Source: Tequatrovirus BCH953P2
Direction: 5' to 3' (one strand)
DNA length: 64,000 bases
Sequence record: OZ035785.1
A program made the position numbers and the translations under genes. The notes under the pieces were generated by a model, which had not been told where the DNA came from, did not search any database, and worked only from the letters and a program-made list of their open reading frames with translations. Shown here in pieces: positions 5,558 through 63,888 of this stretch (within the stretch, counting starts at the first letter, position 1; every line of letters starts with the position of its first letter).

Positions 5558-5567
5558 AATATTCTCC

Positions 5568-5723: not shown

Positions 5724-5730
5724 ATTTTCC

Positions 5731-8379: not shown

Positions 8380-8390
8380 AATTTTTCCTT

Positions 8391-8413
8391 AAAACAAAAG
8401 GGCCGAAGCCCCT
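8391..8413 (-). terminator. Rho-independent terminator / stem-loop
   Basis: GGGGCTTCGGCCC stem-loop followed on minus strand by TTTTGTTTT. Confidence 0.6.
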
Positions 8414-8417
8414 TATT

Positions 8418-8612: not shown

Positions 8613-8640
8613 AATTTTCCTTAGTTAAGGGCCGAAGCCC

Positions 8641-9579
8641 TTATTTAAATTGTTCAGTAACGTCTTCAACTACTTCGTATTGGCAGGTACGCATTTTAGC
8701 ATCATTGTAATCAATCGGAATTGATACTACATCGCGAGGATGTACTTTAACTTTTACAACTCGACTGGTTGAACTGCCAAAGTGACGAATATAAGATTTA
8801 GAACACACATGCAGACCACGAGAACAAGTTTGTGTATCATCGTCATTCACACGAGTACGTGGCATTTTAACTACTTTACCGGGACTGTTATCAAAAGTAT
8901 TTGAATGGCAGTCAAAGTAATTACTGCGAACTACTTTCCAAGCATAGAAGTAACCATCTTCTGTAATTTCAATATCGTTTGCTACCAAGAAATCAAAGAG
9001 TCGAGATACCGCTTTTTGGCTCGGGTTTTCCAACAGATTTTCCAAGAACGGAAAATAAAATTCAAAGTTTTCGCCTTTTTCCATCGAATCGAGAATACGA
9101 TCAACTAAACCAGACCGCAATTCAATATTTTGATAGAACAAGCTTCCACCTTCAATTCGAACATCACCGGAAATATATTTTTCAACAGCGCGACGAACAT
9201 TAATTTTTTGTGCCGCTTCTTCCAATTTATCTGCAACAAGCAGATTAAGAATTTCCTGGAAGTTTGAATGAGTATTAGGAGTTGCGTTATAAGTTACACC
9301 ATCAACAGTAATTGAAATGAATTTTTTAGATGCATTCCAAATAATGTCAGATTTAGCAACTGGAGCAATAGCTGTATCGCTATTAACTTTAACCGTAATG
9401 TCACCGCTAATGGTAACTTTGGAGCGTTCAGCTTCTTCAGCATTTTTCAAAACACGACGGATTGTGTCAACCGATACACCTTGCCAATTAGCTAATTCCT
9501 GTTGGGTGTAATTACCACTTGAATACAGTTTAACAATTTCAGCTTGTTCGTTTTTGGTCAGGCATTTAATATTGTACAT
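8641..9579 (-). CDS. rIIB: rIIB
   Basis: 312 aa (T4 rIIB is 312 aa); directly downstream of rIIA. Confidence 0.9.
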   Translation of the reverse strand: MYNIKCLTKNEQAEIVKLYSSGNYTQQELANWQGVSVDTIRRVLKNAEEAERSKVTISGDITVKVNSDTAIAPVAKSDIIWNASKKFISITVDGVTYNATPNTHSNFQEILNLLVADKLEEAAQKINVRRAVEKYISGDVRIEGGSLFYQNIELRSGLVDRILDSMEKGENFEFYFPFLENLLENPSQKAVSRLFDFLVANDIEITEDGYFYAWKVVRSNYFDCHSNTFDNSPGKVVKMPRTRVNDDDTQTCSRGLHVCSKSYIRHFGSSTSRVVKVKVHPRDVVSIPIDYNDAKMRTCQYEVVEDVTEQFK

Positions 9580-9590: not shown

Positions 9591-11768
9591 TTAGGCCGCA
9601 AGGGCCTTCATAGTTTTAGCGATTTGAGAAACTTCATCATCACTTAAAGAGTTGCGATATCCGATGAAGTCGGAAACAATACGGAATTTCTTGGTAAACT
9701 CAGCAACCATTTTATCACTGTTTTTTGAAGCATTATTTGATAATACATCAAAAAGATTAGTTACTGTCCAGATGTCATGACCGATGGTATCTTTTCCACC
9801 GTTGAAATATATACCCTGCAATGAACTAACCATATTACCAAGGCGAGTATATTCTTCAGAAACTTCATCTACACTGAAGTACTTCATCATAAAATCTAGT
9901 TCAGGATACTTAATAATTTTATCAATATATCGTTTAGCTGAACTTGAATAACCTACATACTTATCATAATCTACATCATCAAAAGCATCTACATATAAAT
10001 CACGCAAAGCTTCAAAAATACATTGGCACTGACCGAGTTCTTTTACTTTTTTCTGTAAAAGCGGACGAATAACATAAAATTCATTAATGCCAATAAGATT
10101 AGCCATACGAATCAAAATATTCATAGATGGATGACAAAGAGATGTAGTACCATCCATAGAGAAAATATCAGAACGATGCATATACGCTACATAACCAGTA
10201 ATTTCATCTGCTTCTGACGTAAGCGTAAATAGTTCCTCTTTTTCCCAGCGCCCGTCTTTAATTTCAAACTTAAATGCTGTAGCAGCTTTAGGACGAGGAG
10301 CTTTACTTTTAACTACCTTTGGAATATAGTTTTTAACTAAAGCTTCAATTTCTGACAAATAATGAATGTTAACTTCATCACTTTCAAACATTGCCATAAT
10401 ATCAGGGAGTAAATCAATCTGCGATTCTACTTCCGGATTAATAAACAGAAGACGCTCATTATGATGAATATTCAAAGTGTTGTTAAATTCTTTATCATCT
10501 AACGCATGCGCTAATCCACGGACAATATTAACACGATTTTTAATATTATCAATAACAATATTAATTTTTGTTGTATTAATACCAAACAGACGATAACTTG
10601 ATGCAACGGCTGAAGTTTCATGACTTTGCTTAATGCGTTTCAGTCGAGGGTCAAGATTTACTTCATACACAACTCCTGCATTGCATAACTTACTGTCAGG
10701 TTCAAACATGCTTTGCATCTTCTTATATGACAGATTTTTAGTCGTAAATTTGACTGAATTACTAATCATATAATCTCGAGCAGAATATCCCATCTTCATC
10801 AATTCACGGTATGTATGACGAGGAGATGTAGATTCTTTAAATCGTTTTACATCTTCATTGAATGCCTTCTCACTAAGCTCTTTAACACGCTCAATAATAT
10901 TTTTACGAGTACGATCATCTAGTGAAAGAGCTTCACGTGATGGAGCAATATCAAGTGAACCCATTGGAAACTTAATGTAATTCACTTCATTGCGGATGCT
11001 TAACCAGTTACGGTCTCTAATAACACCATCAATAGGATAAACAATACCACCATAGATAGCATATAATCCACCGCGATCTGGCCAGTATCTTTCTGGATTT
11101 ACACCGTAATAGTCATCAAAATCCGGAAAATAATCAATTTCGCGGTCAAGACCACTAATGATAGCTAAATCTTTGAATGGTCGCATGATATAAGAAACTT
11201 CATAAGCAAAGTTTCTAAAGTCTTTTTCTTCAACTGGAACTACGATTTCAATACCAGTTTTATCATCTGGACCCATTTCTTTTACAAATGTAGGTTTAAT
11301 TTGTGGACCATCGCCATCCATGTAAGCTACATAACCACGAATTTCGCCTTTATGATATGAAGTAATACTAAATGTATCAGTATAACTAAACGGAGATTTA
11401 GAACCTAAACCAAACCCACCAATGAAATCATTAGATTCAGCCTTAGATGAACTAAAGTATGAATTATACAACCCGGGAGAATTATCATCACCTTGAATAT
11501 CAAAATCGCTCATACCTGGACCAAAATCTCGACAAACAAATCGCGGATCTAATCGTCCTGGAACTTGAATGATAAATTTTTCAGGATTTCCATTGAGAGC
11601 ATGGGCATCAATCATGTTGGTAATCAATTCACGGACTACTGCGCGAATCTTGTTTGTATACAAGTCAGATGACAGAATTTTAAATACTTTAGGAGATGCT
11701 GTGATGCTAAATGCTTTTGATTTAGAACCATTACCAAGAATTGTTTCTTTTTCAGTGGTGATAATCAT
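9591..11768 (-). CDS. rIIA: rIIA
   Basis: 725 aa (T4 rIIA is 725 aa); [20 protein letters not shown]...; GHKL-type ATPase-like N-terminus. Confidence 0.9.
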
Positions 11769-11778
11769 AATTTCCTCA

Positions 11779-11982
11779 TTAATTCATATTGCGTTTAATA
11801 ACTTCAGCAACTTCTAGTAGTTCATCTTTAGTTGCGGTGTCGGATTGAATTTTATCTCTAATATCTTTAAAGCGGTTTTTAAATTCTTCGGCTTCTCCCA
11901 TATCGAAAAAGCGTTGAATGATTCTATATTCTCGATGAACTGCTTTATCAAAAAGTTCTAAATTTACTTTATATGATTTCAT
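11779..11982 (-). CDS. rIIA.1-like small protein (67 aa)
   Basis: Position between gene 39 and rIIA; early promoter and RBS GAGGA upstream. Confidence 0.6.
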
Positions 11983-12007
11983 TTCAATATCCTCATTTGC
12001 CCAATTA

Positions 12008-12037
12008 ATTATACCACATCCTTGTGGTAAAGTAAAC
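12008..12037 (-). promoter_or_regulatory. T4 early promoter
   Basis: GTTTAC then 17 bp then TGTGGTATAAT, a near-perfect extended -10. Confidence 0.7.
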
Positions 12038-13857
12038 TACTGGCTCATCCATTCTTTACGAAGGTCAGCATTATCTCCCATGAGCATTTCAAAAAGCTCT
12101 TTCCAGTTCTCAGGAAGTTTAACAACATCATATACTGGGTTTTGAATCATCTCACGATATTCAGATTTTTCCAAAGAGCCAAGTCCTTTAATATAACGGA
12201 TGCTATGTTTAGGTAGAGCATCTTTGGCACTCTCATATTCAGCGACTGTATAAAACCATTCTTGTTTTTTACCGACCTGAGCGATGATTACAGGAGTTTT
12301 GACAAAGCGAATTCGTCCTTGCTCAAACAATTCTGGCCAATTACTAAAAAACCCGAGCAGAGAAGGATAAATGCTTCCTAGGCCATCATGGTCAGCATCA
12401 GTCATAATAGCGATATTATGATAATTCAAGTTTTCAGCTTTTTCACCGAGAACTAATCCAGTGATTGCGCAAATATCAAATAGTTCTTTGTTTTTAAGCA
12501 TATCTGCATAAGACATACCCCAACTGTTGAGAACTTTACCGCGCAATGGATAACCACCGTGAAGTTCTTTATCACGAACATCAATAAGATATCCGATAGC
12601 CGAATCACCCTCAGTCAAGAAAAGAGTAGTGTCAGCATCTTTACCACAAAGATTCGCTTTGATATGTTTATGAACCTTAGCTTTAGAAGCCTTTTTAGCT
12701 GCTTTAGTTTCTGCTGCTTTTTCTGCCGCCAATTTACGAGCCAAAGCAGCTTCAATAATCGGCATTAGAATTGCTTCATTATTTAGAATAGCGCGTGAAA
12801 TCTTTTTAGCATCAAGTTGAATATGACTACGAATTTCGCCAAATGGAGAAGTCAAACGCTCTTTAGTTTGAGAATCAAATCGCATGTTTTTCATATCACG
12901 AACAAACATAACGATAGTCAAACATTCTTTAACACGCGCTTTAGTTACATCAATTTTGAACTTACGTTTGATTTGTGGAATAAGGTCTTCACAAATATCA
13001 TCCATAACACAGTCAATGTGATGGCCACCATTCTTAGTGTGAATGTTATTGACGTATGTTAATTGACGAAAACCATCCGGTGAACGACCAACCGCAATAG
13101 AACAATTTTCTTGTTCTTGAACGATAGCATGCTCATCATATTGGCGTGCATATTTCTTAAAATTGCCCTGAACCTTTTTACCATTAAAGGTAAATTGAAT
13201 ATCAGGATAAACTACTGCAAGTGTCTGGAGACGATCTAGTGTAATGTCAAGATAAACTTGGGACAGCTCATTAGTTTCAAATGACATAAAATCAGGAATG
13301 AAAGTAACACGAGTTCCTTTCCATTTTCCAGGAATAGTTTCCCATGATTTATTTTCCATGCCATTTGAACAACGAACTACAATATTATTTTGACCGTCGC
13401 CAGTTTCACCGACAAACATCACAGAAAAAATGTTTGTCAAACTAGAACCAACACCGTTCATACCGCCAGTGACGCGTTCTTTATCATCGCCGAAGTTACC
13501 GCCTGCTTTTGGAATAGTCCAAGCAGCAACAGGACCAGGAATTTCTTCACCAGTAGGTGTTTTAACCATCGCTTGTGGAATACCACGACCGTTATCTTCA
13601 ACTGTTACTTGATTGTTTTTAATAGTAACATTAATTTTATTTGCGAATTTAAACTTAGTACGAATACCTTCATCTACTGAGTTATCGATAATTTCATCAA
13701 TAAGCTTAACAAGACCAGGTACATACTGAACACTTTCCCATTTACCAAACAGAAAGCGCTCATGCATTTCATTAGCAGAAGAGCCAATATACATGCCGCT
13801 ACGCTTTTTGATATGTTCAATATCGCTCAGAATTTTAATTTCATTCTTAATCATCAC
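12037..13857 (-). CDS. 39: DNA topoisomerase II large subunit (GyrB-like ATPase plus Toprim), single uninterrupted ORF
   Basis: 606 aa covering both the T4 gp39 and gp60 regions in one frame; GHKL and Toprim motifs. Confidence 0.9.
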   Translation of the reverse strand: MMIKNEIKILSDIEHIKKRSGMYIGSSANEMHERFLFGKWESVQYVPGLVKLIDEIIDNSVDEGIRTKFKFANKINVTIKNNQVTVEDNGRGIPQAMVKTPTGEEIPGPVAAWTIPKAGGNFGDDKERVTGGMNGVGSSLTNIFSVMFVGETGDGQNNIVVRCSNGMENKSWETIPGKWKGTRVTFIPDFMSFETNELSQVYLDITLDRLQTLAVVYPDIQFTFNGKKVQGNFKKYARQYDEHAIVQEQENCSIAVGRSPDGFRQLTYVNNIHTKNGGHHIDCVMDDICEDLIPQIKRKFKIDVTKARVKECLTIVMFVRDMKNMRFDSQTKERLTSPFGEIRSHIQLDAKKISRAILNNEAILMPIIEAALARKLAAEKAAETKAAKKASKAKVHKHIKANLCGKDADTTLFLTEGDSAIGYLIDVRDKELHGGYPLRGKVLNSWGMSYADMLKNKELFDICAITGLVLGEKAENLNYHNIAIMTDADHDGLGSIYPSLLGFFSNWPELFEQGRIRFVKTPVIIAQVGKKQEWFYTVAEYESAKDALPKHSIRYIKGLGSLEKSEYREMIQNPVYDVVKLPENWKELFEMLMGDNADLRKEWMSQ

Positions 13858-13908
13858 TTATCCTCGTTTGGTTTCGGGAATATTATACTCCGGTAATCAT
13901 AAAGCTAA

Positions 13909-13922
13909 AGGCCCGAAGGCCT
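13909..13922 (-). other. Intercistronic GC stem-loop (GGCC-CGAA-GGCC family)
   Basis: AGGCCCGAAGGCCT between lipoprotein gene and gene 39; possible MotA-box-like GCTTTA and TATAAT nearby. Confidence 0.45.
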
Positions 13923-13923
13923 T

Positions 13924-14193
13924 TTATTTAAAACGGATAGTCGAATCCTTGAAGAATAGACCAGAACATACGGTTCCTTCTACTTTCTGTCCGGTAGGTC
14001 CAATAGCGCGAAATCCAGTATGTTGGAAATCATTTTCAGAGCAACCGAACCAGTTATATCCAGTGATTTCAATATTAGTAAAACCGCTTGAAGACAAAAT
14101 TTTGGTTGCATTATCAGCATCAGTACATCCTGCTAAAGACACTGCTAATACTAATGCTGCGATAGAACGATTAATATATTTCATAATTTTCAC
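13924..14193 (-). CDS. Putative lipoprotein (89 aa)
   Basis: Signal peptide with lipobox LAG-C (MKIMKYINRSIAALVLAVSLAGCTD). Confidence 0.6.
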   Translation of the reverse strand: MKIMKYINRSIAALVLAVSLAGCTDADNATKILSSSGFTNIEITGYNWFGCSENDFQHTGFRAIGPTGQKVEGTVCSGLFFKDSTIRFK

Positions 14194-43331: not shown

Positions 43332-45014
43332 TTAAACCATTACAGTAAATCGACCAACTTTCTTCATTTGAAGATGCTGACCATATGCTTGCGGGTCATG
43401 GTCTCTATGTGAAATAACAAAAACATTAGTATTTTTTAAACTATCTAAAATAGTTGAAATAGCTTTTACACCTTCAACGTCGGTCGCTGAATCAAAAACT
43501 TCATCAAGAATTAGTGTGTTTATTTTAACACCTGAAACTTTTTCAGCAATATCACGCCAAGTAAATAAAAGAGCAATATCAATTCGTGCTTTTTCACCTT
43601 GACTGAATGAAGCATAACTAAAATCTTCGCGACCACGGGATTTAATTGTCTCATTAAATTCTTCATCTAATGTAAACACATAATCCGCTTCCATTATTTT
43701 AAGATAATGGTTAATCTGCTTATTAAATAATGGAATGTACTTTTTAATAATAGCACCTTTAATACCAGAATCTTTGAGCATATCAGTCAAAATTCCTCGG
43801 TGGTATTTTTCCATTACTAAATTAGTTTTTGTCTTAACAATTTTATCAAGTTCTTCTTGAAGCAGTGCTATTTCATCAGCATGGTCAATAAACTCAGAAG
43901 ATGCTTTTTCTATAGCTGCTTTAACTTTTTTGGCTTTATCTACCGTCGTGATTAGAGATTGCTTTTTATTGCGAATATCATTTGCCAACGACTGTTGGGT
44001 TTTAATATTATCTCGGTATTCATCAACAAGAACTTTTAAATTATCACGATGTGTTGAAAGCTGTTCAAACGAATGCGTACATTCAGAAACTTTATCTTTA
44101 ATTTTAGAAACAACTTTATCACCGGAACTCAATTGTGACAAACAGGTTGGACATAATCCACCTTCGTGATACATATTAATGACTTTATTATACGAGTCAA
44201 TTTTTGATTTAATTAAAAATGCTTCTTGACCGATTTTATTAAATGCATCAGTCGGGTCTTCATCTAAAACAATATTAACTAATCTTTCATTAGCTTCTTC
44301 TATTTCCGATTTTAGCGTTCTAGCTTCTTTTGCCAAATCATCATACATATTTTGTAGACGAGTAAGGTTGTCACCCGTTAATTTTTTCTGGCGTTCAACG
44401 TTATCATTATATATTTTAATTTGTTGGATAATACTATCTTTTTTAACATCAAGCACTTGGTTTTGTGAATTTAATTCACGTATTAGTGCTTTATTAAGCT
44501 TATCCATTTCAGCTAGTGTTCCTACCTCAAGCAGGTCTTCCACAAGCTTTCTTCGTGCAGGGGTCGACAAACCCATGAAAGGGGTATACCCTGCTGTACC
44601 AAGGACAACAATCTGCTTGAAACTGGCATATGACATTCCGATAAGCTGTTCAAATTCTGCTTGGAAATCTTTACTGCTGGCAGATTCATTAAGACGTGTA
44701 CCGTTAACGGTGATTTCGAAAACGTTCGGTTTTTGTCCTCTTTTGATATAGTACTTTTTCTCATCATATTCCATCCACAGTTCAACTAAAAGTTCTTTCT
44801 TATTTGTGCTGTTTATTAATTGACCTTTCTTTACATCACGAAATGGCTTACCAAAAAGCCCAAATGTGATGGCTTCTAGCATAGTAGACTTACCACCGCC
44901 ATTTCGTCCAGTAATAAGAGTTTTTTGAACCTTATCTAATTGAATGTCAACTCCATTTTGACCAACTGACATTATATTTTTATATTTTACTCTATTAAGT
45001 TTAAAATTCTTCAC
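43332..45014 (-). CDS. 46: gp46 recombination nuclease ATPase subunit (Rad50/SbcC-like)
   Basis: 560 aa (T4 gp46 is 560 aa); Walker A GRNGGGKST, coiled-coil middle, zinc hook CPTC. Confidence 0.9.
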   Translation of the reverse strand: MKNFKLNRVKYKNIMSVGQNGVDIQLDKVQKTLITGRNGGGKSTMLEAITFGLFGKPFRDVKKGQLINSTNKKELLVELWMEYDEKKYYIKRGQKPNVFEITVNGTRLNESASSKDFQAEFEQLIGMSYASFKQIVVLGTAGYTPFMGLSTPARRKLVEDLLEVGTLAEMDKLNKALIRELNSQNQVLDVKKDSIIQQIKIYNDNVERQKKLTGDNLTRLQNMYDDLAKEARTLKSEIEEANERLVNIVLDEDPTDAFNKIGQEAFLIKSKIDSYNKVINMYHEGGLCPTCLSQLSSGDKVVSKIKDKVSECTHSFEQLSTHRDNLKVLVDEYRDNIKTQQSLANDIRNKKQSLITTVDKAKKVKAAIEKASSEFIDHADEIALLQEELDKIVKTKTNLVMEKYHRGILTDMLKDSGIKGAIIKKYIPLFNKQINHYLKIMEADYVFTLDEEFNETIKSRGREDFSYASFSQGEKARIDIALLFTWRDIAEKVSGVKINTLILDEVFDSATDVEGVKAISTILDSLKNTNVFVISHRDHDPQAYGQHLQMKKVGRFTVMV

Positions 45015-45274: not shown

Positions 45275-45461
45275 TATCTAAAATGTTGAAGTTAAAAGAT
45301 ACAGCCCAATCTGTACAGACCGTAACCTTTTTAATACAATTATCTTCAACCTCTAGCGGTTCAAACCAATATTCAATAATTTCTTTATGACCAATATCAT
45401 CTTTTACTTCGCATTCAAAATGCTGACTCATCATAACATTTTTAAATTCATCAAAAGTCAT
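45198..45461 (-). CDS. Hypothetical protein (87 aa); position of T4 46.2
   Basis: 4-nt overlap with gene 47 start. Confidence 0.55.
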   Translation of the reverse strand: MTFDEFKNVMMSQHFECEVKDDIGHKEIIEYWFEPLEVEDNCIKKVTVCTDWAVSFNFNILDNDTPKSLRDMAVSCIKDAYCEVFDI

Positions 45462-46477
45462 TGTGTTGCCTCTACATATAACTGATTTGCATATTGAATA
45501 AGTGCTTCACGGTCAGAATCAGTGATGTCTGGAATTGCATTAATGTATTCTTCCATCAACGTCTGAAGAGATTGAACTTCAACTTCTTCACTGTCATCTG
45601 ACTCGACAGAGTTATCAATCTTTGACACAACTCGTAATGAATGCACAACTTTCTCTAGTTCAGATTCGAACTTCGTCAGATTTTTGTCTACTTCAGTTAC
45701 TATAACACGTACTGATAGATTTGTAAAATCTTTATAGTCAATTTTTCCTTTAAATGGATAATGAATTCTACGATGCCAGGTAGTATTGTTTGGAATAAAT
45801 TCCATTCGTTCTGTTTCTGTATCAAACATCCAGAACCCACGAGGGTCATTCTCGTCACCTGCAGTTAGTGTCCATGGTGTCCCAATATATCTGACATTAG
45901 CAGCCTCAGAAATAGTATGGAAGTGACCAGACCACACTTCTTTATAAGTCTTAAGGAAATCAGGTTCAAGACCATGAGATTTCATTCCTTTATAAAAATA
46001 AAATCCATTCAGTTCCCAGTGACCAACACAAAAAGAAGCAGATGAAGTTTTGATGTGTTCAAGAATTTCACCAGTATTTTCTTCACACATCCAAGGAATT
46101 AAATCAATTAAACATCCGTCAAAATCTACCGTAGTAGGCTTATCATATACTTTAACATTAGGATATTTAGCCAAAAGCTCAGTAGAGGCATTTGGATGCA
46201 TTACATTTTTGTAGTGGAGATCGTGATTTCCTACAATAGTATGTAATGTGATTCCAGCATCATCAAGCATTTGAACTATTTCACGGGCAAACTCCATAGT
46301 TTTATGTGTGATCGCTTTTCGTACATCAAAAATATCACCATATTGAATCCATACAGTAATTCCATTTTTCTTAGAATATTCTATCGCTTGTTTAATTCCA
46401 TCAATTTGAATACCGCGAATCCACTCATCATCGGCTTTAACGCCTAAATGCCAATCACCTAAATTTAAAATTTTCAT
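45458..46477 (-). CDS. 47: gp47 recombination nuclease subunit (Mre11/SbcD-like)
   Basis: 339 aa (T4 gp47 is 339 aa); calcineurin-like phosphoesterase motifs (GDWHLG). Confidence 0.9.
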   Translation of the reverse strand: MKILNLGDWHLGVKADDEWIRGIQIDGIKQAIEYSKKNGITVWIQYGDIFDVRKAITHKTMEFAREIVQMLDDAGITLHTIVGNHDLHYKNVMHPNASTELLAKYPNVKVYDKPTTVDFDGCLIDLIPWMCEENTGEILEHIKTSSASFCVGHWELNGFYFYKGMKSHGLEPDFLKTYKEVWSGHFHTISEAANVRYIGTPWTLTAGDENDPRGFWMFDTETERMEFIPNNTTWHRRIHYPFKGKIDYKDFTNLSVRVIVTEVDKNLTKFESELEKVVHSLRVVSKIDNSVESDDSEEVEVQSLQTLMEEYINAIPDITDSDREALIQYANQLYVEATQ

Positions 46478-55733: not shown

Positions 55734-55872
55734 GTCCCATCTCCATATCAATTAAGTTATTTATCGTTGGTTCATTATATACTGTTTCTTCATCAGTGTA
55801 AACCGGTTCTTCCGGCTCTGGCTCTACAGTTTCCCATCTAGCCGCCCACCAAGGTTTTATAGCGTAATCCAT
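55730..55872 (-). CDS. Small acidic protein (47 aa)
   Basis: MDYAIKPWWAARWETVEPEPEEPVYTDEE...; ATGA overlap with pin-like start. Confidence 0.4.
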
Positions 55873-56177
55873 TCTCGTACTGTCTGAGTTACTACACGTT
55901 CTCGAAGCTCAACCAGTTCAACGGTAGGAACTGCATAATACCAGTCAGAATGGTAAGAACCTGAGCGAGATTCATTTACGGAAACATATACGTAGTGTTT
56001 TGGGCTAAAGTAAATTACTCGACGATATTGGCATTTGCCTTGTTGAGTCCATTCTTCGGATTCAATCTGAATAAGATAGTCGGAAAAATCGAAATCATAG
56101 TTTTCCGAAAATGCATCATGGTCTTCGATGATTTCGCTCAGAACTGCATCAACATCTAATTTATTTTCAATAGTCAT
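55857..56177 (-). CDS. Hypothetical protein (106 aa)
   Basis: Acidic ORF. Confidence 0.55.
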   Translation of the reverse strand: MTIENKLDVDAVLSEIIEDHDAFSENYDFDFSDYLIQIESEEWTQQGKCQYRRVIYFSPKHYVYVSVNESRSGSYHSDWYYAVPTVELVELRERVVTQTVREWITL

Positions 56178-56188
56178 TTTTTCACCAA

Positions 56189-56359
56189 TTAATTTCGCAA
56201 TTTATTAAGTTCTTCATAATCAATCCAGGATTCTAATCCTGATGGCAAATCAGATTCAATTTCCCAAAGAAGTTCTTCAATTTTATGAAGACGATCTAAT
56301 TCTTCAGCTGGAATAGTAACCATTGATGGAGTTCTTGATACACTAATATCGTAAATCAT
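56189..56359 (-). CDS. Hypothetical protein (56 aa)
   Basis: Trimmed to MIYDISVSR... Confidence 0.45.
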   Translation of the reverse strand: MIYDISVSRTPSMVTIPAEELDRLHKIEELLWEIESDLPSGLESWIDYEELNKLRN

Positions 56360-56361
56360 AT

Positions 56362-56577
56362 TTACCCCAGCTTGACCATGCAATCACCGTATTTCCACTT
56401 AGAAATAGACTTTTCACCATTAGAATAATAAACTTCGAGTTTAGCACGATTATTTTTAATTTGAATAACCTTGGCTGTCATCAAAGTTCCATACCCATAG
56501 TAAACTGCAACTTCATCACCTACATATACCGCGCTTCCGCGGTAGTCATGGATATAATCAGTTCCTTCGAGAATCAT
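56362..56577 (-). CDS. Hypothetical protein (71 aa)
   Basis: 4-nt overlap with nrdC stop. Confidence 0.5.
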   Translation of the reverse strand: MILEGTDYIHDYRGSAVYVGDEVAVYYGYGTLMTAKVIQIKNNRAKLEVYYSNGEKSISKWKYGDCMVKLG

Positions 56578-56837
56578 TTAAAGTATTCCCGCAATTGGTC
56601 AAATCCACCAATATGACTTCCATCAGGAGCAAATACCTGAGGCATCGTCAATCCGATTTGAGTATCACGACCTAGTTTAGTCAGAAGCTCAGCGATTTTC
56701 TCATCATCAAAAACACCTTTTTCCGGCATAATGTTGATAAATTCAAACGGCTGTTTCTTCACGGTCAAAAGACGTTTTGCATTATCGCAGTACACACATT
56801 TGTGGATGTTGCTATCATAACCATATACTTTAAACAT
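56574..56837 (-). CDS. nrdC: NrdC thioredoxin
   Basis: 87 aa (T4 NrdC is 87 aa) with CVYC active site. Confidence 0.85.
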   Translation of the reverse strand: MFKVYGYDSNIHKCVYCDNAKRLLTVKKQPFEFINIMPEKGVFDDEKIAELLTKLGRDTQIGLTMPQVFAPDGSHIGGFDQLREYFK

Positions 56838-56838
56838 A

Positions 56839-57096
56839 TTATTCCTTAATTCCTAGTACTTGTTTAAAAGTCTCGTCGTAATCAAGACTTTGGCCCGTTT
56901 GTTCTTTATGTTTGTATATAATATCACTTACTTCTGATAGCATATTTTTATATGAACGAGTTAAAGCAGATTTAAGCACGCTGTATCTATCAGGAAATTT
57001 ACCATGTTCATAATAATAAGCTATTGCTAATTCGCGGACTGCCATTTCAGCAGTCTTCATATATTCTTTACGCTTTGTCATTTTCTTCTCGGTCAA
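56839..57096 (-). CDS. Hypothetical protein (85 aa or shorter)
   Basis: Minus-strand ORF; start uncertain. Confidence 0.5.
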
Positions 57097-57382
57097 ATCG
57101 GTGTTTACAATGACGACATTTATAACGAAGATTACTAGTCTGCCAATGAACTAATTGTACCTGTTCAGTACCACACTCAGGACAATTAGGAACGTTTTTA
57201 GAAGCCCTTTCACGACGTTCAACCATGACCATTACAGAATCCCAATTAACAGGAGGGCTATAATCATCACAACCATGAATCTTTCCACGCATTTCCAGAT
57301 CGTCTTCTTCACCAGCCATAATAATTTTAATTAGACTAGAATTACTTGAAGCTGCAATGTCTTCTAATAGACGCTTTTTCAT
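57068..57382 (-). CDS. Zinc-ribbon protein (104 aa)
   Basis: CPECGTEQ...CRHCKH four-Cys arrangement. Confidence 0.55.
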
Positions 57383-58308
57383 TTCAATACCTCAATAGCA
57401 TTACGTAAACCATTTGCTTTTGCATTAAGAGCTTTTAACAATTTGGTGTGTTCTGCAATTTGGGCTTCAACTTCAATCAAACGAGCATTGAGATATTCGC
57501 GTTCTTCACTCAGATTATCAGCCTTTTCTGCTTTAGGTTCTTTTACAACTTGCTTATATGTATTAGGGTTCTTCAGTTTAATTAGAATGCGTGAACTGTA
57601 CAGCATTGAACCATTATCTTCGGTTTCGTCATACATTTCCACTACGTCCATCATCTCCACCATCGTGCAGAGTTTATAAGACAACGAACGAATAATTTTG
57701 TTGTGCTTATTAATTTCTCTAGCTGTCATGGTGCCGAGATTACGTGAGTAATAATAAGGAACCTGGATATTAATTAATACTGATGAACCACCTGGCTTGT
57801 GTGTTACTTCATCAGCAATAACCCAATCCTTAACATGAACTGTATTTGTACGGTCATCGCCCGCGGTAAATAGTTTACGAGCATGCTTAAAAAGCATATT
57901 CACTTGGTCATTGAATTGACAAGCGAATTTATCAGCAAATTTAGTTTCGGGAATGGTAGATAACCAATCAGCCAAATGGGTCTTTTTAACATCGTTAACA
58001 ATAGTAAATTCAACCAAATCGGTTATAGATGTCTCAGATTTAATGAAGCTCGGCTTCATAAAGTTTTTAATGTTATCACTAGCTACAGTAGAAGATAACA
58101 GACGAGAACGTTTAAACCATTGAAGCAAATTGCCTAACGAATGAGAATAAGCGTTTTGAGTATCTTTACAGATATGATTTTCCTGGCCAACATATTGAAG
58201 GAAATCACGAAGAATATTATTGATTACTGCTCTGTGTCCTATCTGATAATTACGATGTTTAGTAATAAGACTGTCAAAATAATCAATATAATGTTTACGA
58301 GTTTTCAT
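57379..58308 (-). CDS. Hypothetical protein (309 aa) with C-terminal coiled-coil tail
   Basis: C-terminal ~45 aa ...[41 protein letters not shown]. Confidence 0.65.
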   Translation of the reverse strand: MKTRKHYIDYFDSLITKHRNYQIGHRAVINNILRDFLQYVGQENHICKDTQNAYSHSLGNLLQWFKRSRLLSSTVASDNIKNFMKPSFIKSETSITDLVEFTIVNDVKKTHLADWLSTIPETKFADKFACQFNDQVNMLFKHARKLFTAGDDRTNTVHVKDWVIADEVTHKPGGSSVLINIQVPYYYSRNLGTMTAREINKHNKIIRSLSYKLCTMVEMMDVVEMYDETEDNGSMLYSSRILIKLKNPNTYKQVVKEPKAEKADNLSEEREYLNARLIEVEAQIAEHTKLLKALNAKANGLRNAIEVLK

Positions 58309-58360
58309 GTTCTTCTCACTTTGTTAATGATTTGTACTCCGAGCCATCCTTGGCTTTAAA

Positions 58361-59362
58361 TTACTTAATTAACTGTAAAGCTTGTTCAAGACGATCCAAG
58401 CGATTAACAGATTCTTCCCAAATCCTTTTAGCCCGCTCATATTCTTTCTGCGCTTTATTAGAAATTTCTAGAACTTCTTTATAAGCTTTTTCTAGTGCAA
58501 TAACTTCTGGACGAATTTCTATCGGTTCAGGTGAATCATCAAGACATTCCATTAGTTCCTCAAGGGTAGTTTCTTCTTTAGGAGTATTCACAATTTCATC
58601 ACATTTTTGTTGGTAAATTTCTTTATCAGTCGGTGAGTACGCGCACTTTACTTCACGAAGACTAATTACAATTTTATATCCTTCCCAACCGCATATATTC
58701 TTAAAAGGATAAGTATGAATATTTTCTACTGTTTCCATACAAAGTAATGCGGTCTCTAATTGACGAGTTATAGTGCTAGCAATTGAGAAAAATTTATTAA
58801 TATTCTTTTGGTTAGTTTCTGGTGTAAAAAATCCATAATTCACAAAAATAGATACTTTATTTTTATCAAGTTCATATTCTTTTATGATAATCATATCAGA
58901 AGCCAAAGGATGAATTTGACGATAATCGCCATAACATAATTTAGAAGCTGATTTTAGAATCTGTCCTTTGAAAAGTCTGAAATTACTAATCCAACGACGA
59001 GTAAAAATATTCTCAGGGTCTTCTTTATTATTAAGATGATAAGAATTAACATCACCGAACCAATTATATCCTACTACATCTTTGGTTCGTTTAATTTCTT
59101 TCCCAAAATTACCAAGAATATCCCGATTAACCAAATATGAAAGAAGACGAGACTCTTTAAAGGTTTTCTTGATAACATCTTTATCTACACGGCTAGAAAT
59201 TTTACGAATTTCATGAATAAATTTAGCAGAAGAAACAATACCTGCATCAACACTATTGAGCCATTGATTGATAATAGAAAGAACGCTATTTTGGCCAAAC
59301 ATCGGTATAGCTTTATCATCAATAACGCTATTGAATGATTTGATATATTCGTTACGAGTCAT
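58361..59362 (-). CDS. Hypothetical protein (333 aa) with C-terminal coiled-coil tail
   Basis: Start moved to MTRNEYIKS... (RBS GAGGAG; promoter inside longer call); tail ...EYERAKRIWEESVNRLDRLEQALQLIK. Confidence 0.65.
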   Translation of the reverse strand: MTRNEYIKSFNSVIDDKAIPMFGQNSVLSIINQWLNSVDAGIVSSAKFIHEIRKISSRVDKDVIKKTFKESRLLSYLVNRDILGNFGKEIKRTKDVVGYNWFGDVNSYHLNNKEDPENIFTRRWISNFRLFKGQILKSASKLCYGDYRQIHPLASDMIIIKEYELDKNKVSIFVNYGFFTPETNQKNINKFFSIASTITRQLETALLCMETVENIHTYPFKNICGWEGYKIVISLREVKCAYSPTDKEIYQQKCDEIVNTPKEETTLEELMECLDDSPEPIEIRPEVIALEKAYKEVLEISNKAQKEYERAKRIWEESVNRLDRLEQALQLIK

Positions 59363-59390
59363 ATTAATCTCCTCAGTAGAAAGTAAGAAC

Positions 59391-59420
59391 ATTATACCAC
59401 ATCCTTGTGGCAAAGTAAAC
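59391..59420 (-). promoter_or_regulatory. T4 early promoter
   Basis: GTTTAC, 17 bp, TGTGGTATAATG on minus strand. Confidence 0.65.
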
Positions 59421-60445
59421 TAGTTCAGTGCATTTAGTGCATTGTTCAGTTTAGAACGTTGCTTTGTCAGATTTTGAACCCTTGACTGAGCTTGTTCTAA
59501 CGCCTTTTCAGCTTCTAGCACTTCATTGGTCGCTTTAACGAGTTCATCATCTACTGCCTTAAGGGACTTCTCAATCGCATCCGCGTGCCATTTTTCAACA
59601 GGTTTAAGACTCGGATTTTCAATAGGAAGAAAATTCACTTTATTGAATTTCCATGCATCCTTATTACCTGAACTATACATCCAAAATTTAGGATCGTTTG
59701 ATAAGTAATTGGATAAATTTAAATTTAAGTTATCTTGTACTTCTTGCTTTTTCTCTTGCGGGACTTCGTCCTTTCTCAAAAAATCATATTTAAATGAAAC
59801 GATCATATCAAGTTCATATGATGTTGTATCTAACTTAAATCGTTCAAAACGAGGTAAAATCTTAGATTGAACAGCAGCAACAACATCCATATACTTAAAT
59901 GCTTCTGTCAACTGTGATTTAAGGCATTCACAAATTGAAAGAGAATTTTTTGTATTAGGCTTAAAGCTAATTCGTGCAGTTCTATTATTTTCTTTTAATG
60001 GTCTTACTTCCATTTGAAGAGTATAACCATCAAATTTCAGATTCTTTAAGTTAATATCAGAACCTTTTAATCGACTAGCAGTAGACAAAATTTGCTTTAA
60101 TTGTTTACGGAATAGAGCAATAAATCTCCATTCAAGACGATAATGATTTGGATTAAAAAATCCTGTTGATAAATCGACCTTACTCTGACCAACGCCTTGA
60201 ACAAATAGAGGATTTTTATAATCAATAGTTTTACAGAAATCGGTGAGCTGCTCACGAGCAGTCATTTGTGTAATATACCCCGCTTTACTAAAATGACGTA
60301 ACCATTCACTGCTATTCATATACTTAAAGTGAATATCACGATTAACTTTATCAGGGTCTAAATTATTTTGGCACAAAAATGTCATAACATCACGAGTATA
60401 GCTGGCATTACGAACCATATCTTCAATTTGAGAACGAGTTTTCAT
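59420..60445 (-). CDS. Hypothetical protein (341 aa) with C-terminal coiled-coil tail
   Basis: Tail ...ELVKATNEVLEAEKALEQAQSRVQNLTKQRSKLNNALNALN. Confidence 0.65.
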   Translation of the reverse strand: MKTRSQIEDMVRNASYTRDVMTFLCQNNLDPDKVNRDIHFKYMNSSEWLRHFSKAGYITQMTAREQLTDFCKTIDYKNPLFVQGVGQSKVDLSTGFFNPNHYRLEWRFIALFRKQLKQILSTASRLKGSDINLKNLKFDGYTLQMEVRPLKENNRTARISFKPNTKNSLSICECLKSQLTEAFKYMDVVAAVQSKILPRFERFKLDTTSYELDMIVSFKYDFLRKDEVPQEKKQEVQDNLNLNLSNYLSNDPKFWMYSSGNKDAWKFNKVNFLPIENPSLKPVEKWHADAIEKSLKAVDDELVKATNEVLEAEKALEQAQSRVQNLTKQRSKLNNALNALN

Positions 60446-60453
60446 AGTGTTCC

Positions 60454-61356
60454 TTAAGATTTAAGTAAATCAACAATTTTAATTAACTTTTCACGCTCAG
60501 ATTTAGCTTTACTACTCAATCCAGATAGTCTGAAAATTTCATCGTCATATTGTTGAATAGAAATATTCAGCTCTTCAATTTGCTTATTAAAATAATCAAT
60601 TTGTTCAGAATGTTTTTCGTTACTACGAACTGGTGCAGGTTTTGTAGGTAATTTAGTTGAACTGGATTCATCCGGGCGATAAATTAAAATACAACTTGAA
60701 CCAATCGGACATTTAGCACCAGACACATATTCTAATGTTCCAGCTTCTTTTAAAATTTCAAAAGCTAAACAGAGATGATGACACATATTGACATAATCTG
60801 TAGAGTGAGCTCTGACGTAATAATCATCTCCACGAGTGCTAAATTTAAAGCATTTAAGGTCTTCTGTATTATTAGTTTTAAAAATCATTTGTTTATCTAG
60901 ACCTTTAGCTAATCGAGCGCCTAATGCTAATAATCGTCGTTGATTTTCCCACAAATCTGCGATCATTTGGTCAAATGATAATTTTGGCATTAGTCGACCA
61001 TAAAGGTCATATCCTTTATTATAATTGCGAAGAATTTCACTCGCGTTAATGCGAGACAACGCTCCAATTTTATTAAGGGCTTTCATGATGCGATTAGATA
61101 AAAGCATTCCAGACCCGTTTGTTCGTTGTAAATGTTTTTCTAATCCAAATCCAATATCAACTTTAAACTTATCTAAAATTTCGGCGTGAACATCTTTATC
61201 AATAACATTTAAATTTAGTACTGGGTTAAATTTATGAAAAAATTTATCTGACTCGTCGCGTTGAAGTACAGTCCATTCATTTGATTTTTTATTAACTAAA
61301 GATTTAATTACTGCATTGACATTATTAATTGCTACTGACATATTTTCCTCACTCAA
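60454..61356 (-). CDS. Hypothetical protein (300 aa) with C-terminal coiled-coil tail
   Basis: Tail ...QIEELNISIQQYDDEIFRLSGLSSKAKSEREKLIKIVDLLKS. Confidence 0.65.
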   Translation of the reverse strand: MSEENMSVAINNVNAVIKSLVNKKSNEWTVLQRDESDKFFHKFNPVLNLNVIDKDVHAEILDKFKVDIGFGLEKHLQRTNGSGMLLSNRIMKALNKIGALSRINASEILRNYNKGYDLYGRLMPKLSFDQMIADLWENQRRLLALGARLAKGLDKQMIFKTNNTEDLKCFKFSTRGDDYYVRAHSTDYVNMCHHLCLAFEILKEAGTLEYVSGAKCPIGSSCILIYRPDESSSTKLPTKPAPVRSNEKHSEQIDYFNKQIEELNISIQQYDDEIFRLSGLSSKAKSEREKLIKIVDLLKS

Positions 61357-61757
61357 TTTTCAATTTTACTAAATACACAGAATATGATGGAAAAGACTAT
61401 ATAAGCACCGCATACAGATTGAACTAATACCATTCCAAAGAACCAAATAATATTATCAAACCATGTCTGTTTTACGTCGAAAGGACGTAAACTTACAGTA
61501 ATATTATCACCTTTTTCTATTGAAGAATACATCTCTGGCGAAATATATTCGCTAAATCTATAACCGTCTTTGAGTTCATATACGGCAATAAACGATAAAC
61601 TAGACCCCTTTCCTTGAGTTCCTGTAAGGGTATTAACTACAGTAACATCATAATCTTTATAATGCATATAATCATTAATAGCATAATAACCATATGCAAT
61701 TACTATACATAAACAACATATCAATAAATTCAATCTTTTAATTATCAACTGTTTCAT
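61353..61757 (-). CDS. Membrane protein (134 aa), TM segments at both ends
   Basis: N-terminal LLICCLCIVIAYGYY and C-terminal FFGMVLVQSVCGAYIVFSIIFCVF hydrophobic segments. Confidence 0.55.
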   Translation of the reverse strand: MKQLIIKRLNLLICCLCIVIAYGYYAINDYMHYKDYDVTVVNTLTGTQGKGSSLSFIAVYELKDGYRFSEYISPEMYSSIEKGDNITVSLRPFDVKQTWFDNIIWFFGMVLVQSVCGAYIVFSIIFCVFSKIEN

Positions 61758-61812
61758 AATAATCTCAATTAAAAGGGCTTAGAACCATTATACCATCCTT
61801 GGTATAAAGCGG

Positions 61813-62340
61813 TTATGCGAGTACCGTCTTTAACCGTTCTTCAAACTTCCGAAGAGTGTTCTGGCGTTCAGCTCTTTGCTTTTTGTAAGTTTCAATACGC
61901 TCTGAAATGAGAGTGTATCGTTCATTTACTGATTCTTTCATAAAATCAGGAATTTCACGAGAAGCTTTAATCTCATCAAATTTATCAATAACAGCTTGCT
62001 CTTCAGCAATTAAGTTATCATACATCAAAATATCTTTCTTGATGAACTCAATATCTTCTTGAGTTACACGAGATAATTTAGATGCTTTATCCTTTTTGTA
62101 CTGTTCGTTAGTATCACGAGACCAGTGTAATGTACGATTTTTATTCGTATTCTTGTAAATTTCTACAATACCAATCTCATCAATAATAACGATCCAATTC
62201 CAACGGGATTTGTAAATTTGTCCTCCATCAACAGTGATTTCACCTCCGATTGAGATGTCATTAAAGAACTTGCTTTGTGCTTCAGATTTAAATTTACCAT
62301 CGTTGTAATTTACCAGGTTGAAAATATCTTTAGCGTTCAT
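61813..62340 (-). CDS. Hypothetical protein (175 aa) with C-terminal coiled-coil tail
   Basis: Tail ...ERIETYKKQRAERQNTLRKFEERLKTVLA; early promoter and RBS GGAGGAA upstream. Confidence 0.6.
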   Translation of the reverse strand: MNAKDIFNLVNYNDGKFKSEAQSKFFNDISIGGEITVDGGQIYKSRWNWIVIIDEIGIVEIYKNTNKNRTLHWSRDTNEQYKKDKASKLSRVTQEDIEFIKKDILMYDNLIAEEQAVIDKFDEIKASREIPDFMKESVNERYTLISERIETYKKQRAERQNTLRKFEERLKTVLA

Positions 62341-62366
62341 TTTGTGTTCCTCCGTAGTTGATAGGG

Positions 62367-62398
62367 TAATAGTACCACGGAAGAACAGTCTTGTAAAC
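62367..62398 (-). promoter_or_regulatory. T4 early promoter
   Basis: GTTTAC ... CGTGGTACTATTAC on minus strand. Confidence 0.6.
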
Positions 62399-62400
62399 CA

Positions 62401-62715
62401 CTAAAAGAAACTTCTTTCACAATTTTTTCCACTGAACCAAGCGCTCACTGCTTTCTTAGTCTCAGGAGCAGTGTTATCCATAAACCATTCAAAGGCAGCC
62501 TTTTTATGATTCTGGAGGGCTTCTCGGGCTTTAATCTGCTCACGGTCTATTAACACTAACATATGAGCCTTTCTTGTCACCAAGGGCTTCTTATGATTTT
62601 TTGAATACTCCCAATCATTTGTCCATCGCATCGTTGTTGCGAATTGAAGTACAGCTTCTTTAATTTTAGTTTCGTAAATTTCACGAGCCTTTGAGTATAA
62701 CATCACTACCTCCAT
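62401..62715 (-). CDS. Hypothetical protein (104 aa)
   Basis: Minus-strand ORF. Confidence 0.55.
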   Translation of the reverse strand: MEVVMLYSKAREIYETKIKEAVLQFATTMRWTNDWEYSKNHKKPLVTRKAHMLVLIDREQIKAREALQNHKKAAFEWFMDNTAPETKKAVSAWFSGKNCERSFF

Positions 62716-62805
62716 TTACCAGTTTAATTCTAGTCATCTTTTTGATGGCGGTCCATATAATCTATTTCTGAACTGCCTTTTTGTCATAGAAGTCCTCTTA
62801 TGAAT

Positions 62806-63786
62806 TTATTTCAGAAGAGTAACCTCAGCGATTTCTTCCCAACCGTTTTTGTCGGTCATAATAAAGTCAGCAAGATAAAGAGCAGTACGCAGTGAAACAT
62901 TGCGTAAACGATTAACATTGACTTTCATCCATGATAATGCTTTATAAGTTTCTTCATCAGAAAGACCGCGCTTTTGCATCATGTCGGTTGAAAGAATAAC
63001 ATCTTCAACCCTGACCATAATTTCTTCATTAGTGTGAACACCCAAATCTAAATAAACTGAGCGGGACACTAATGCTTGTAAATGTGGAGCAAGTTTAGTA
63101 CCACGGTCTAATTCGCGGTCAATGTCAACGTTTGTGATAAAAACAATCGTTCCTTTAAATTCAAACTCACGCTCAATGCCTTTTTCTTCTAAGTAAGAAG
63201 ATGCAGTGCTCCAGCAGACTTTACGGGTCTCTCCAGTGTCCAGAGCAGCTTTTAGAAGATTAAGAATGTCCATATCAGAGAAAACATCCACATCATCAAT
63301 CAAAAGGACAGAATTCTCTTCACGATTATTCCAAAGCTGTTCATAAAGACCAATACCAGAGATTTTACCATTAATGCTTTTATATTCAATGTATCCAATA
63401 TCATTTGCTTTATTTAAAGCTTTATCTAAAGAATGCGTTTTACCAATACCTGCTGCACCAGAGATAATTAATGAACGAATGTTTCCGTTAATAATACCAT
63501 TCGTCATCATTCCCATAACATTAAATCTTTTATTAATGCGGGTTTTCATATCTTCATACGATTCTTTAACTTCTTCAACTTTTACACCATCATATGAAAT
63601 GTCTGATTTGTAAACCCAAACACCGCGACGTTTACCGTCAATTTCAACAAAAACTTTACCATCTCCTTGTGCATCTACCGGAGCATTATCTGGGAACCAT
63701 TCACCTAAGAGCTCAAAAGTTCCAGAGATTTCTTTACCGAAGTAGATACCCTTATTGATAGTTACAGTTTTCATTTTATTCTCCAA
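62806..63786 (-). CDS. P-loop NTPase (AAA-like ATPase)
   Basis: 326 aa; Walker A GAAGIGKT and Walker B VLLIDDVD; early promoter and RBS GGAGAA upstream. Confidence 0.7.
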   Translation of the reverse strand: MENKMKTVTINKGIYFGKEISGTFELLGEWFPDNAPVDAQGDGKVFVEIDGKRRGVWVYKSDISYDGVKVEEVKESYEDMKTRINKRFNVMGMMTNGIINGNIRSLIISGAAGIGKTHSLDKALNKANDIGYIEYKSINGKISGIGLYEQLWNNREENSVLLIDDVDVFSDMDILNLLKAALDTGETRKVCWSTASSYLEEKGIEREFEFKGTIVFITNVDIDRELDRGTKLAPHLQALVSRSVYLDLGVHTNEEIMVRVEDVILSTDMMQKRGLSDEETYKALSWMKVNVNRLRNVSLRTALYLADFIMTDKNGWEEIAEVTLLK

Positions 63787-63862: not shown

Positions 63863-63886
63863 AAAAAAGGGAGCCCGAAGGCTCCC
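63863..63886 (-). terminator. Rho-independent terminator
   Basis: GGGAGCC-TTCG-GGCTCCC followed on minus strand by TTTTTTATTT. Confidence 0.65.
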
Positions 63887-63888
63887 TA

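Follow-up and report, generated by a model that had tools for sequence, protein, structure and literature searches.

The closest described system to the genes considered here is nrdC.5 of phage T4. A T4 clone with deletions including this gene was reported to infect neither ECOR17 nor MG1655 carrying dsr1 (ECOR17), and plasmid-borne nrdC.5 to restore T4 infection on dsr1 cells (Srikant, Guegler & Laub, eLife 2022, PMC9391042). Dsr1 is a SIR2-type defence protein. A functional parallel is found in DSAD1, from an SPbeta-like phage, reported to counteract DSR2 (PMC10973363, PMC10981675, PMC11087589). In this work, we analyze a stretch of 64,000 nucleotides from Tequatrovirus BCH953P2 (record OZ035785.1; hereafter, the window), and within it a block of minus-strand genes, corresponding to the nrdC.3-nrdC.8 segment of T4, most of whose products carry a heptad-like C-terminal tail.

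NrdC.3, NrdC.4 and NrdC.5, and probably NrdC.6, turn out to be divergent tandem copies of one paralogous family, characterized by a common layout: an α/β body of about 225-250 residues, a variable linker and a C-terminal heptad helix of 43-58 residues. The interpretation that we favour, and hold to be reasonably probable, is that the block, made up of the divergent tandem paralogs NrdC.3 to NrdC.6, represents an expanded family of oligomeric counter-defence proteins, with NrdC.8 standing apart from it.

Identity and layout of the gene block

The window is a genome segment of a T4-like (Tequatrovirus) phage: in a sequence search, its positions 57000-62800 were 96-98% identical to many T4-like phages of E. 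coli, Shigella and Salmonella. An initial annotation of the window had described here five consecutive genes, with unrelated N-terminal bodies and similar coiled-coil tails. All five open reading frames (ORFs) are indeed found on the minus strand, at the coordinates then given, and correspond to T4 nrdC.3,.4,.5,.6 and.8; they are not strictly consecutive, because nrdC.7 sits between nrdC.6 and nrdC.8. For nrdC.6, reported as 60454..61356 with a TTG start, the ATG at 61341 (MSVAIN...) is the likelier start, since orthologs begin MSQAIN. The central observation, a run of neighbouring genes of unassigned function with a real heptad, coiled-coil-type C-terminal tail, was borne out. The features of the block, in window coordinates, are the following:

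57379..58308, minus strand: nrdC.3, 309 amino acids (aa); family member, paralog of nrdC.4; phrog_1435
57382..57510, minus strand: heptad tail of nrdC.3, residues 267-309; 10 of 12 core positions hydrophobic, in one register
58361..59362, minus strand: nrdC.4, 333 aa; family member; phrog_1435; precomputed Pfam label of an ortholog, PF26897 Phage_T4_Y04OP
58364..58504, minus strand: heptad tail of nrdC.4, residues 287-333; ends RLEQALQLIK; 12 of 14 core positions hydrophobic
59420..60445, minus strand: nrdC.5, 341 aa; Pfam DUF7235 (PF23882); the T4 ortholog counters Dsr1
59600..59767, minus strand: disordered linker of nrdC.5, residues 227-282; predicted local distance difference test score (pLDDT) below 50 at 227-280
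59423..59599, minus strand: tail helix of nrdC.5, residues 283-341; ends KLNNALNALN; 15 of 17 core positions hydrophobic
60454..61341, minus strand: nrdC.6, 295 aa from the ATG at 61341; probable, more distant family member
60457..60600, minus strand: heptad tail of nrdC.6, last 48 residues; ends KLIKIVDLLKS; 12 of 14 core positions hydrophobic
61353..61757, minus strand: nrdC.7, predicted membrane protein; phrog_2547; outside the family
61813..62340, minus strand: nrdC.8, 175 aa; separate family, phrog_2274; PF26901 Phage_T4_Y05D
61816..62061, minus strand: C-terminal pair of long helices of nrdC.8, residues 94-126 and 132-174 in the AlphaFold2 model; 9 of 12 core positions of the last helix hydrophobic

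The NrdC.5 protein of the window is 96% identical to that of T4. It scores 405.8 bits against PF23882 (gathering score 30 bits), over residues 1-341, i.e. its full length; NrdC.3,.4,.6 and.8 are not matched by this model, so that NrdC.5 is the only DUF7235 member in the Pfam sense. Orthologs of nrdC.4 were found by tblastn, at 42-50% identity, in VR7 (Gaprivervirus), NC-G (Dhakavirus) and four further phages. The intervening nrdC.7 translates into a protein with hydrophobic segments at both the N- and the C-terminus, two predicted membrane helices and no heptad tail.

Homology of the bodies of NrdC.3, NrdC.4 and NrdC.5

The N-terminal bodies had been taken as unrelated in the initial annotation, which is correct for NrdC.8 only: profiles, bridging homologs and Foldseek comparisons speak against it for NrdC.3,.4,.5 and.6. 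Pairwise BLASTP among the window proteins detected a single pair, NrdC.3 and NrdC.4, which fall in the same phrog and are 26% identical over 226 residues (E = 1.5e-6). Profiles were built by adding orthologs from VR7 (Gaprivervirus), NC-G and JS10 (Dhakavirus), the unassigned phage LQ5 and metagenomes. In hhalign comparisons, NrdC.3 matched NrdC.4 with a probability of 97.5% (E = 5e-12), while the joint NrdC.3 and NrdC.4 profile matched the NrdC.5 family with a probability of 96.8% (E = 2.9e-10), over 246 collinear columns at 20% identity. When the tails were cut and the bridging metagenomic protein P0086 was excluded, the bodies alone of NrdC.3/4 and NrdC.5 matched with a probability of 82% (P = 1e-5). 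P0086 itself features a NrdC.3/4-type body (C4 hidden Markov model (HMM), E = 4.8e-6) followed by a NrdC.5-type tail (C5 HMM, E = 7.5e-8).

Three motifs of the body are common to the alignments: an N-terminal M-x-TR-x-E-[YF]-I, A-R-x-x-L-x-[DN]-F-[GC]-K and [IL]L..A[SA][KR]L..G. At the DNA level, the only repeat found among the paralogs is a 19-nt start-codon context near ATGAAAACTCGT (MKTR), common to nrdC.3 and nrdC.5. AlphaFold2, given a 30-sequence alignment, models NrdC.5 with an α/β body at residues 1-226, followed by the disordered region at 227-280. A HMMER search with the NrdC.5 profile against 1.84 billion representatives returned 14 matches, none of which tied to a known domain.

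Because the bodies are homologous too, the tail was inherited, in our view, through tandem duplication and not acquired by modular assembly. The proposal of one docking or oligomerisation tail set on different effector domains is contradicted, for NrdC.3,.4,.5 and.6, by this homology.

The linker of nrdC.4 (58505-58627, residues 246-286) contains an acidic stretch, TDxEIYxxKxEEIxNTPKE..TLExLI, whose conservation across genera equals or exceeds that of the body (37-59% identity, as compared to 36-48%), unlike that of the disordered linker of NrdC.5; it may be an additional functional element.

Placement of NrdC.6

NrdC.6, whose Pfam family is PF26899 Y05B by precomputed ortholog annotation, is a probable, more distant member of the NrdC.3/4/5 family. 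Four independent lines, namely Foldseek, the phage protein PM2_092, a bridge profile and a superfamily HMM, lead us to join it to the others. In Foldseek searches, the NrdC.5 model matched the BFVD model of the JS10 NrdC.6 (E = 7.5e-5) and PM2_092 of Pectobacterium phage PM2 (E = 2.3e-6), along with uncharacterised proteins of 280-374 residues from other phages; the phages represented include Erwinia phage Cronus, Klebsiella phage Mineola, Pectobacterium phage PM2, Citrobacter phage Merlin, Acinetobacter phage Acj61 and Aeromonas phage 65.2. PM2_092 is matched both by the NrdC.3/4/5 HMM (1e-9) and by the NrdC.6 HMM (2.5e-5). The bridge profile, composed of PM2_092, an unannotated ORF of Klebsiella phage PKO111 and gp94 and gp111 of Yersinia phage fHe-Yen9-01, matched NrdC.3/4 and NrdC.5 with E = 4e-10 each, and NrdC.6 with E = 1.6e-5 (probability 79%). 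Finally, a superfamily HMM containing no NrdC.6 sequence ranked NrdC.6 at E = 7e-4 among 165 window ORFs, the next one being at 0.43.

In an iterative HMM search NrdC.6 had been recruited strongly. This was an artefact of the inclusion of a chimeric protein of Salmonella phage Manna, described below, and the search was repeated without chimeras.

The PKO111 ORF used in the bridge profile lies at locus 13154-14128, encodes 324 aa and was matched by the superfamily HMM at E = 4.5e-7 before its inclusion.

The C-terminal heptad tails

Each of the five proteins ends in a heptad-like tail with one unbroken a/d register, as had been noticed at the start, and the tail sequences then quoted are correct. 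The tails span 6 heptads in NrdC.3 and NrdC.8, 7 in NrdC.4 and NrdC.6 and 8 in NrdC.5; 9-15 of their 12-17 core positions are hydrophobic, the final core position falling 1-2 residues before the stop, and contiguous heptads (at least 4) with hydrophobic a/d positions are present in all five. When the 118 minus-strand ORFs of the window are ordered by a simple, ad hoc heptad score, which is not a standard coiled-coil predictor, the five tails take places 1, 4, 5, 7 and 11; in each of the five, the highest-scoring stretch is at the extreme C-terminus, and only 0-8 of 500 composition-matched shuffles equal the observed score. AlphaFold2 models a helix in both NrdC.5 and NrdC.8; in the former, it is a single helix of 58 residues (283-340), with pLDDT about 84-92 from residue 291 onwards. 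A sequence search of the PDB with the NrdC.5 profile gave sub-threshold matches only, two of the six being coiled-coil proteins (Smc and keratin).

How far the tails resemble each other in sequence was evaluated with HMMs and profiles. Narrow HMMs, one for each family of tails, did not cross-retrieve the other tails among the window ORFs; this is not taken as proof of unrelatedness, because the HMMs came from near-identical sequences. In hhalign comparisons of tail profiles, NrdC.3 aligned with NrdC.5 end to end (P = 9.5e-5) and NrdC.4 matched NrdC.5 at P = 0.0035; no significant match was obtained for the NrdC.6 and NrdC.8 tails. Apart from their heptad pattern, the tails are thus only modestly alike.

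The last ten residues form a recognisable signature, K-L-x-x-A-[IL]-x-x-L-K, across the family and across genera. Relatives from metagenomes and from phage PM2 end in KLLRAIQALK, KLFNAMNALKS, KLKNALFALK, KLFAALSALK (the ending of PM2_092) and KLIAAIESLK. A C-terminally anchored motif, [KRGS]L..[AIV][ILM]..[LI][KN].?$, was found in 41 of the 975 ORFs of the fetched phage loci, and all 41 are family members. The strict pattern is matched by NrdC.3,.4 and.5; the ending of NrdC.6, KLIKIVDLLKS, is a near match, and that of NrdC.8, KFEERLKTVLA, falls outside the pattern.

NrdC.8

NrdC.8 is a separate, unrelated small protein, similar to the others only in its helical, heptad-like character. No profile link to the NrdC.3/4/5/6 family was found. 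In its AlphaFold2 model (pLDDT 69, the 60 N-terminal residues being of low confidence), a small β-meander is followed by the helices 94-126 and 132-174, with pLDDT about 77-92, decreasing toward the C-terminal end. What looks like a tail is accordingly modelled as one of a pair of long helices. When the model was compared with BFVD by Foldseek, its own ortholog was the sole match at E <= 0.001.

Conservation and constraint on the tail

For each of the five families, sequence identity is higher in the tail than in the body:

NrdC.3: tail 81-86% identical, body 59-60%
NrdC.4, non-T4 orthologs: tail 60-64%, body 36-48%
NrdC.5, against P0057: tail 64%, body 37%
NrdC.6, other genera: tail 56-69%, body 38-40%
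NrdC.8, non-T4 orthologs: tail 76-80%, body 67-74%

The linker is the least conserved segment of NrdC.5. In NrdC.4,.5 and.6, identity at third codon positions is equal in tail and body, and synonymous differences are as frequent in the tail as in the body, or more so. Since these tails have diverged at synonymous sites no less than the bodies, it is the protein that is constrained, and not overlapping DNA signals. A promoter scan gave 36 promoter-like sites against 31.9 ± 5.4 expected, a number not above chance.

In NrdC.3 and NrdC.8, the tail is more alike than the body also at third codon positions. The window NrdC.3 is only 60% identical to its T4 counterpart (tail 81%, body 59%), between neighbours that are 96-99% identical. 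Its body is a different allele, and the sequence comparison looks like an allelic replacement with a recombination boundary near the tail; the third-position similarity of the NrdC.3 tail fits such a boundary, because the body allele differs between such similar neighbours.

From these comparisons, the conserved tail and the diverging body would fit an invariant element for oligomerisation or docking, joined to a diversifying body that determines specificity. A weaker remnant of the modular idea hence survives, in that the tail is the best-conserved part and the bodies diverge; its other half, the shuffling of effectors, does not.

Gene turnover and natural chimeras

Losses, chimeras and splits of genes occur within the block, a turnover typical of accessory genes. 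The VR7, Dhakavirus and LQ5-type blocks lack both nrdC.3 and nrdC.7. Salmonella phage Manna (locus 5215-6252) contains an in-frame NrdC.6::NrdC.4 fusion, joined at a common 'DEI', in which the end of nrdC.6, the whole of nrdC.5 and most of nrdC.4 are deleted; Manna is therefore left without the anti-Dsr1 gene. The metagenomic protein P0056 (299 aa) joins NrdC.5 (residues ~146-272) to NrdC.3 (~136 to the end) at a short 'VN' microhomology. In one vB_EcoM_G8-like genome (locus 8054-9086), the nrdC.4 gene is broken up into a pair of overlapping ORFs (193 and 158 aa), which suggests a frameshift or a pseudogene. The chimeras and deletions are of the kinds described for T4 as microhomology deletions (PMC9391042).

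The nrdC.6 of the T4 reference itself (locus 10067-10894, 275 aa) is frameshifted with respect to window 60454-61341 and to other phages: its product ends ...IEELIFLFNNMMMKFSDYLD, short of the final ~25 residues of the heptad tail. Either laboratory T4 truly carries this lesion, or the sequence is in error.

ENA contig k141_89665 (803 nt) is of metagenomic origin. Its positions 480-803 match the 3' end of a Tequatrovirus nrdC.5 and the start of nrdC.4 at 99.7% identity, while positions 1-479 are foreign, and in frame with the NrdC.5 tail (protein P0076). P0076 was considered as proof of modular tails and set aside, being more likely, on an 803-nt contig, a mobile-gene insertion which reads into the old 3' end. 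Its upstream frame, HIYAFE...YLKIGDT, resembles by eye the T5orf172/GIY-YIG type, which would suggest the insertion of a mobile nuclease gene.

Neighbouring genes

The genes next to the block include described inhibitors of bacterial defence, as known from the literature:

55857-57096 of the window, and neighbours: defence-inhibitor genes (49.2, nrdC.1)

The product of the former, gp49.2, is reported to inhibit OLD (PMC13096335), and NrdC.1 to inhibit Septu (bioRxiv 10.1101/2025.11.20.689424). In Serratia phage 92A1 (locus 11820-13229), a nicotinamide phosphoribosyltransferase gene is located between nrdC.10 and a thioredoxin-domain gene, presumed to be nrdC, at the site occupied in T4-like coliphages by the NrdC.3-6 family. 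Nicotinamide-based, NAD+-restoring pathways of phages are described as counter-measures to NAD+-depleting defences (PMC13464706), and the locus may collect counter-measures of this type. Because nrdC.5, gp49.2 and NrdC.1 all counter defences, and a NAD+ gene is found at the equivalent position of 92A1, the region behaves as an anti-defence island.

Further upstream, NrdC.10 (62806-63786) gives sub-threshold matches to models of P-loop AAA/STAND-type NTPases and is detected by tblastn in many phages, jumbo phages included, being kept far more widely than the NrdC.3-8 genes. Just upstream of nrdC.10, at 63868-63887 on the minus strand, a strong G+C-rich hairpin (8 pairs, 6 of them G-C) is followed by a T-run; it looks like an intrinsic terminator separating transcription units.

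Many GenBank records tag every nrdC.x gene as "thioredoxin" or "ribonucleotide reductase", and nrdC.8 is treated as a nucleotide reductase in PMC13275509. None of the five proteins has a Pfam or NCBIfam match to thioredoxin, glutaredoxin or reductase models, and such labels are therefore regarded as artefacts propagated from the gene name nrdC. Their correction is of some consequence, as they have already been used in the reading of at least one transcriptome study. PADLOC and NCBIfam scans returned nothing meaningful.

Discussion

The favoured interpretation, a family of oligomeric counter-defence proteins, can be worded as a simple mechanism. The tail would form a coiled coil and oligomerise the protein; the tethered bodies would bind host targets, for example oligomeric defence proteins, with an avidity derived from multivalency; duplication, followed by rapid divergence of the bodies, would provide several specificities. 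Because their bodies are duplicated and diverged, NrdC.3,.4 and.6 may be further counter-defence or host-takeover factors, aimed at different targets. A counter-defence role has been demonstrated, by others, for T4 NrdC.5, and for the remaining three proteins it would follow from their kinship with it.

Several points weigh against this interpretation. The functional data concern NrdC.5 alone, whose action against Dsr1 might involve direct binding or some other means. The profiles of the family have little depth (effective number of sequences about 3), and direct profile comparisons of NrdC.6 with NrdC.5 and with NrdC.3/4 are not significant. The TM-scores of the Foldseek matches are low, 0.3-0.4, and the modelled linker may contribute to them; the long helix, too, can raise the score. 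The tails, too, appear only modestly alike in sequence apart from their last ~10 residues, and a single amphipathic helix might pack against a partner protein instead of oligomerising.

Alternatively, the family might not be chiefly devoted to counter-defence, and contain early host-takeover factors acting on a common host machine, such as the transcription apparatus, with the effect on Dsr1 being indirect. The description of these genes as early in PMC9391042, whose accessible portions give no mechanism for the neutralisation of Dsr1, is consistent with such a role. However, the genes can be lost: viable T4 clones with deletions in this region were reported in that paper, and some of the genes are missing in related phages. 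Quick divergence of the bodies is more in line with an arms race than with the binding of a conserved host machine, and the neighbouring genes are specific defence inhibitors. We consider this alternative unlikely.

A bolder extension of the counter-defence interpretation is that the KLxxA[IL]xxLK tail constitutes a common assembly code, through which NrdC.3,.4,.5 and.6 would form mixed oligomers or bind one shared partner. The result would be a combinatorial, multi-specific counter-defence complex, in which each body neutralises a different host immune protein; we mention it as a long shot.

The idea nearest to the initial annotation is that one docking or oligomerisation tail was shuffled onto several unrelated effectors, recruited to one host or phage partner. 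This would account for bodies which, NrdC.3 and NrdC.4 excepted, look unrelated to BLASTP, for the heptad helix found at the end of NrdC.8 notwithstanding its unrelated body, for the natural recombinants of body and tail (the Manna NrdC.6::NrdC.4 fusion, P0056 with NrdC.5::NrdC.3, and P0076) and for a tail which is the most conserved segment of each protein. Yet four of the five bodies are homologous, which explains a common tail by descent; the NrdC.8 tail has no sequence relation to the others and is modelled as half of a helix pair rather than as a free tail; and the chimeras resemble products of microhomology deletion or insertion, a mechanism reported in T4 by PMC9391042, and not selected fusions. 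It is hard to maintain, and we give it little credit.

The view that the tails are alike by chance, as ordinary amphipathic helices of an A+T-rich phage whose proteins are rich in K, E, L and N, with their conservation due to DNA signals of the downstream gene, could appeal to the tail HMMs that do not retrieve each other above background, to similar heptad scores in other window ORFs (e.g. 43332-44972 and 45458-46477) and to promoter-like sites found in several short gaps that follow the tails, but it is already largely refuted by the heptad order above shuffled sequences, the end-to-end alignment of the NrdC.3 and NrdC.5 tail profiles, the C-terminal motif confined to family members, the unremarkable count of promoter-like sites and the synonymous divergence of the tails, as high as that of the bodies and indicative of protein-level constraint, and is highly improbable.

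Taking the block as a family of tandem counter-defence paralogs has practical implications. Although no phage has been studied better than T4, its nrdC.3,.4,.6 and.8 are still genes of unassigned function. Three of these orphans are siblings of NrdC.5, the only characterised member, and become testable candidate inhibitors of immune systems. From the conserved tail, one may also derive a design principle, in which a constant oligomerising helix is tethered to a fast-evolving binding body.

Comparison with known systems

Part of this picture is already known: the genes are annotated in T4, the NrdC.5 phenotype is published and a Pfam family exists for each gene. PF26897 Phage_T4_Y04OP (NrdC.3/NrdC.4), PF26899 Y05B and PF26901 Y05D are curated families to which no function is attached. 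Judging from the name Y04OP, NrdC.3 and NrdC.4 (UniProt Y04O and Y04P) would already be merged in one family. Ortholog annotations show that Pfam keeps Y04OP, DUF7235 and Y05B separate, whereas here they are linked into one superfamily, Y05B less firmly, with Y05D apart. In the literature searched, where few papers mention these genes, the accessible portions contain no description of the shared tail or of the wider family. What is added here, a modest advance, is the link between NrdC.3/4 and NrdC.5, probably extending to NrdC.6, the common layout of body, linker and coiled coil, marked by a C-terminal signature, and a constraint that is stronger on the tail.

Among described proteins, T4 NrdC.5 (UniProt Y05A, DUF7235) is the nearest, the window ORF 59420-60445 being its ortholog. 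NrdC.3,.4 and.6 have its arrangement of body, linker and tail, and its sequence motifs; they differ in falling below the DUF7235 model, the similarity of their bodies being detectable by profiles only. The accessible portions of PMC9391042 describe neither the mechanism of NrdC.5 nor its coiled-coil tail. The likeness to DSAD1 is a functional analogy only, both being phage proteins that neutralise a NAD+-depleting, SIR2-domain defence protein; the two were compared by described function alone, and not by sequence or structure.

With the anti-defence islands of T-even phages (dmd-tifA-adfA, directed against toxin-antitoxin systems; gp49.2; NrdC.1), as far as the accessible portions of the papers go, the block shares the genomic neighbourhood, the early, non-essential and variably present character of the genes and their rapid turnover via microhomology recombination. 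Neither a paralog array nor a coiled-coil tail is reported in those portions for the island inhibitors; here, in contrast, a protein of about 300 residues has undergone three to four tandem duplications, and its conserved coiled-coil tail has been kept.

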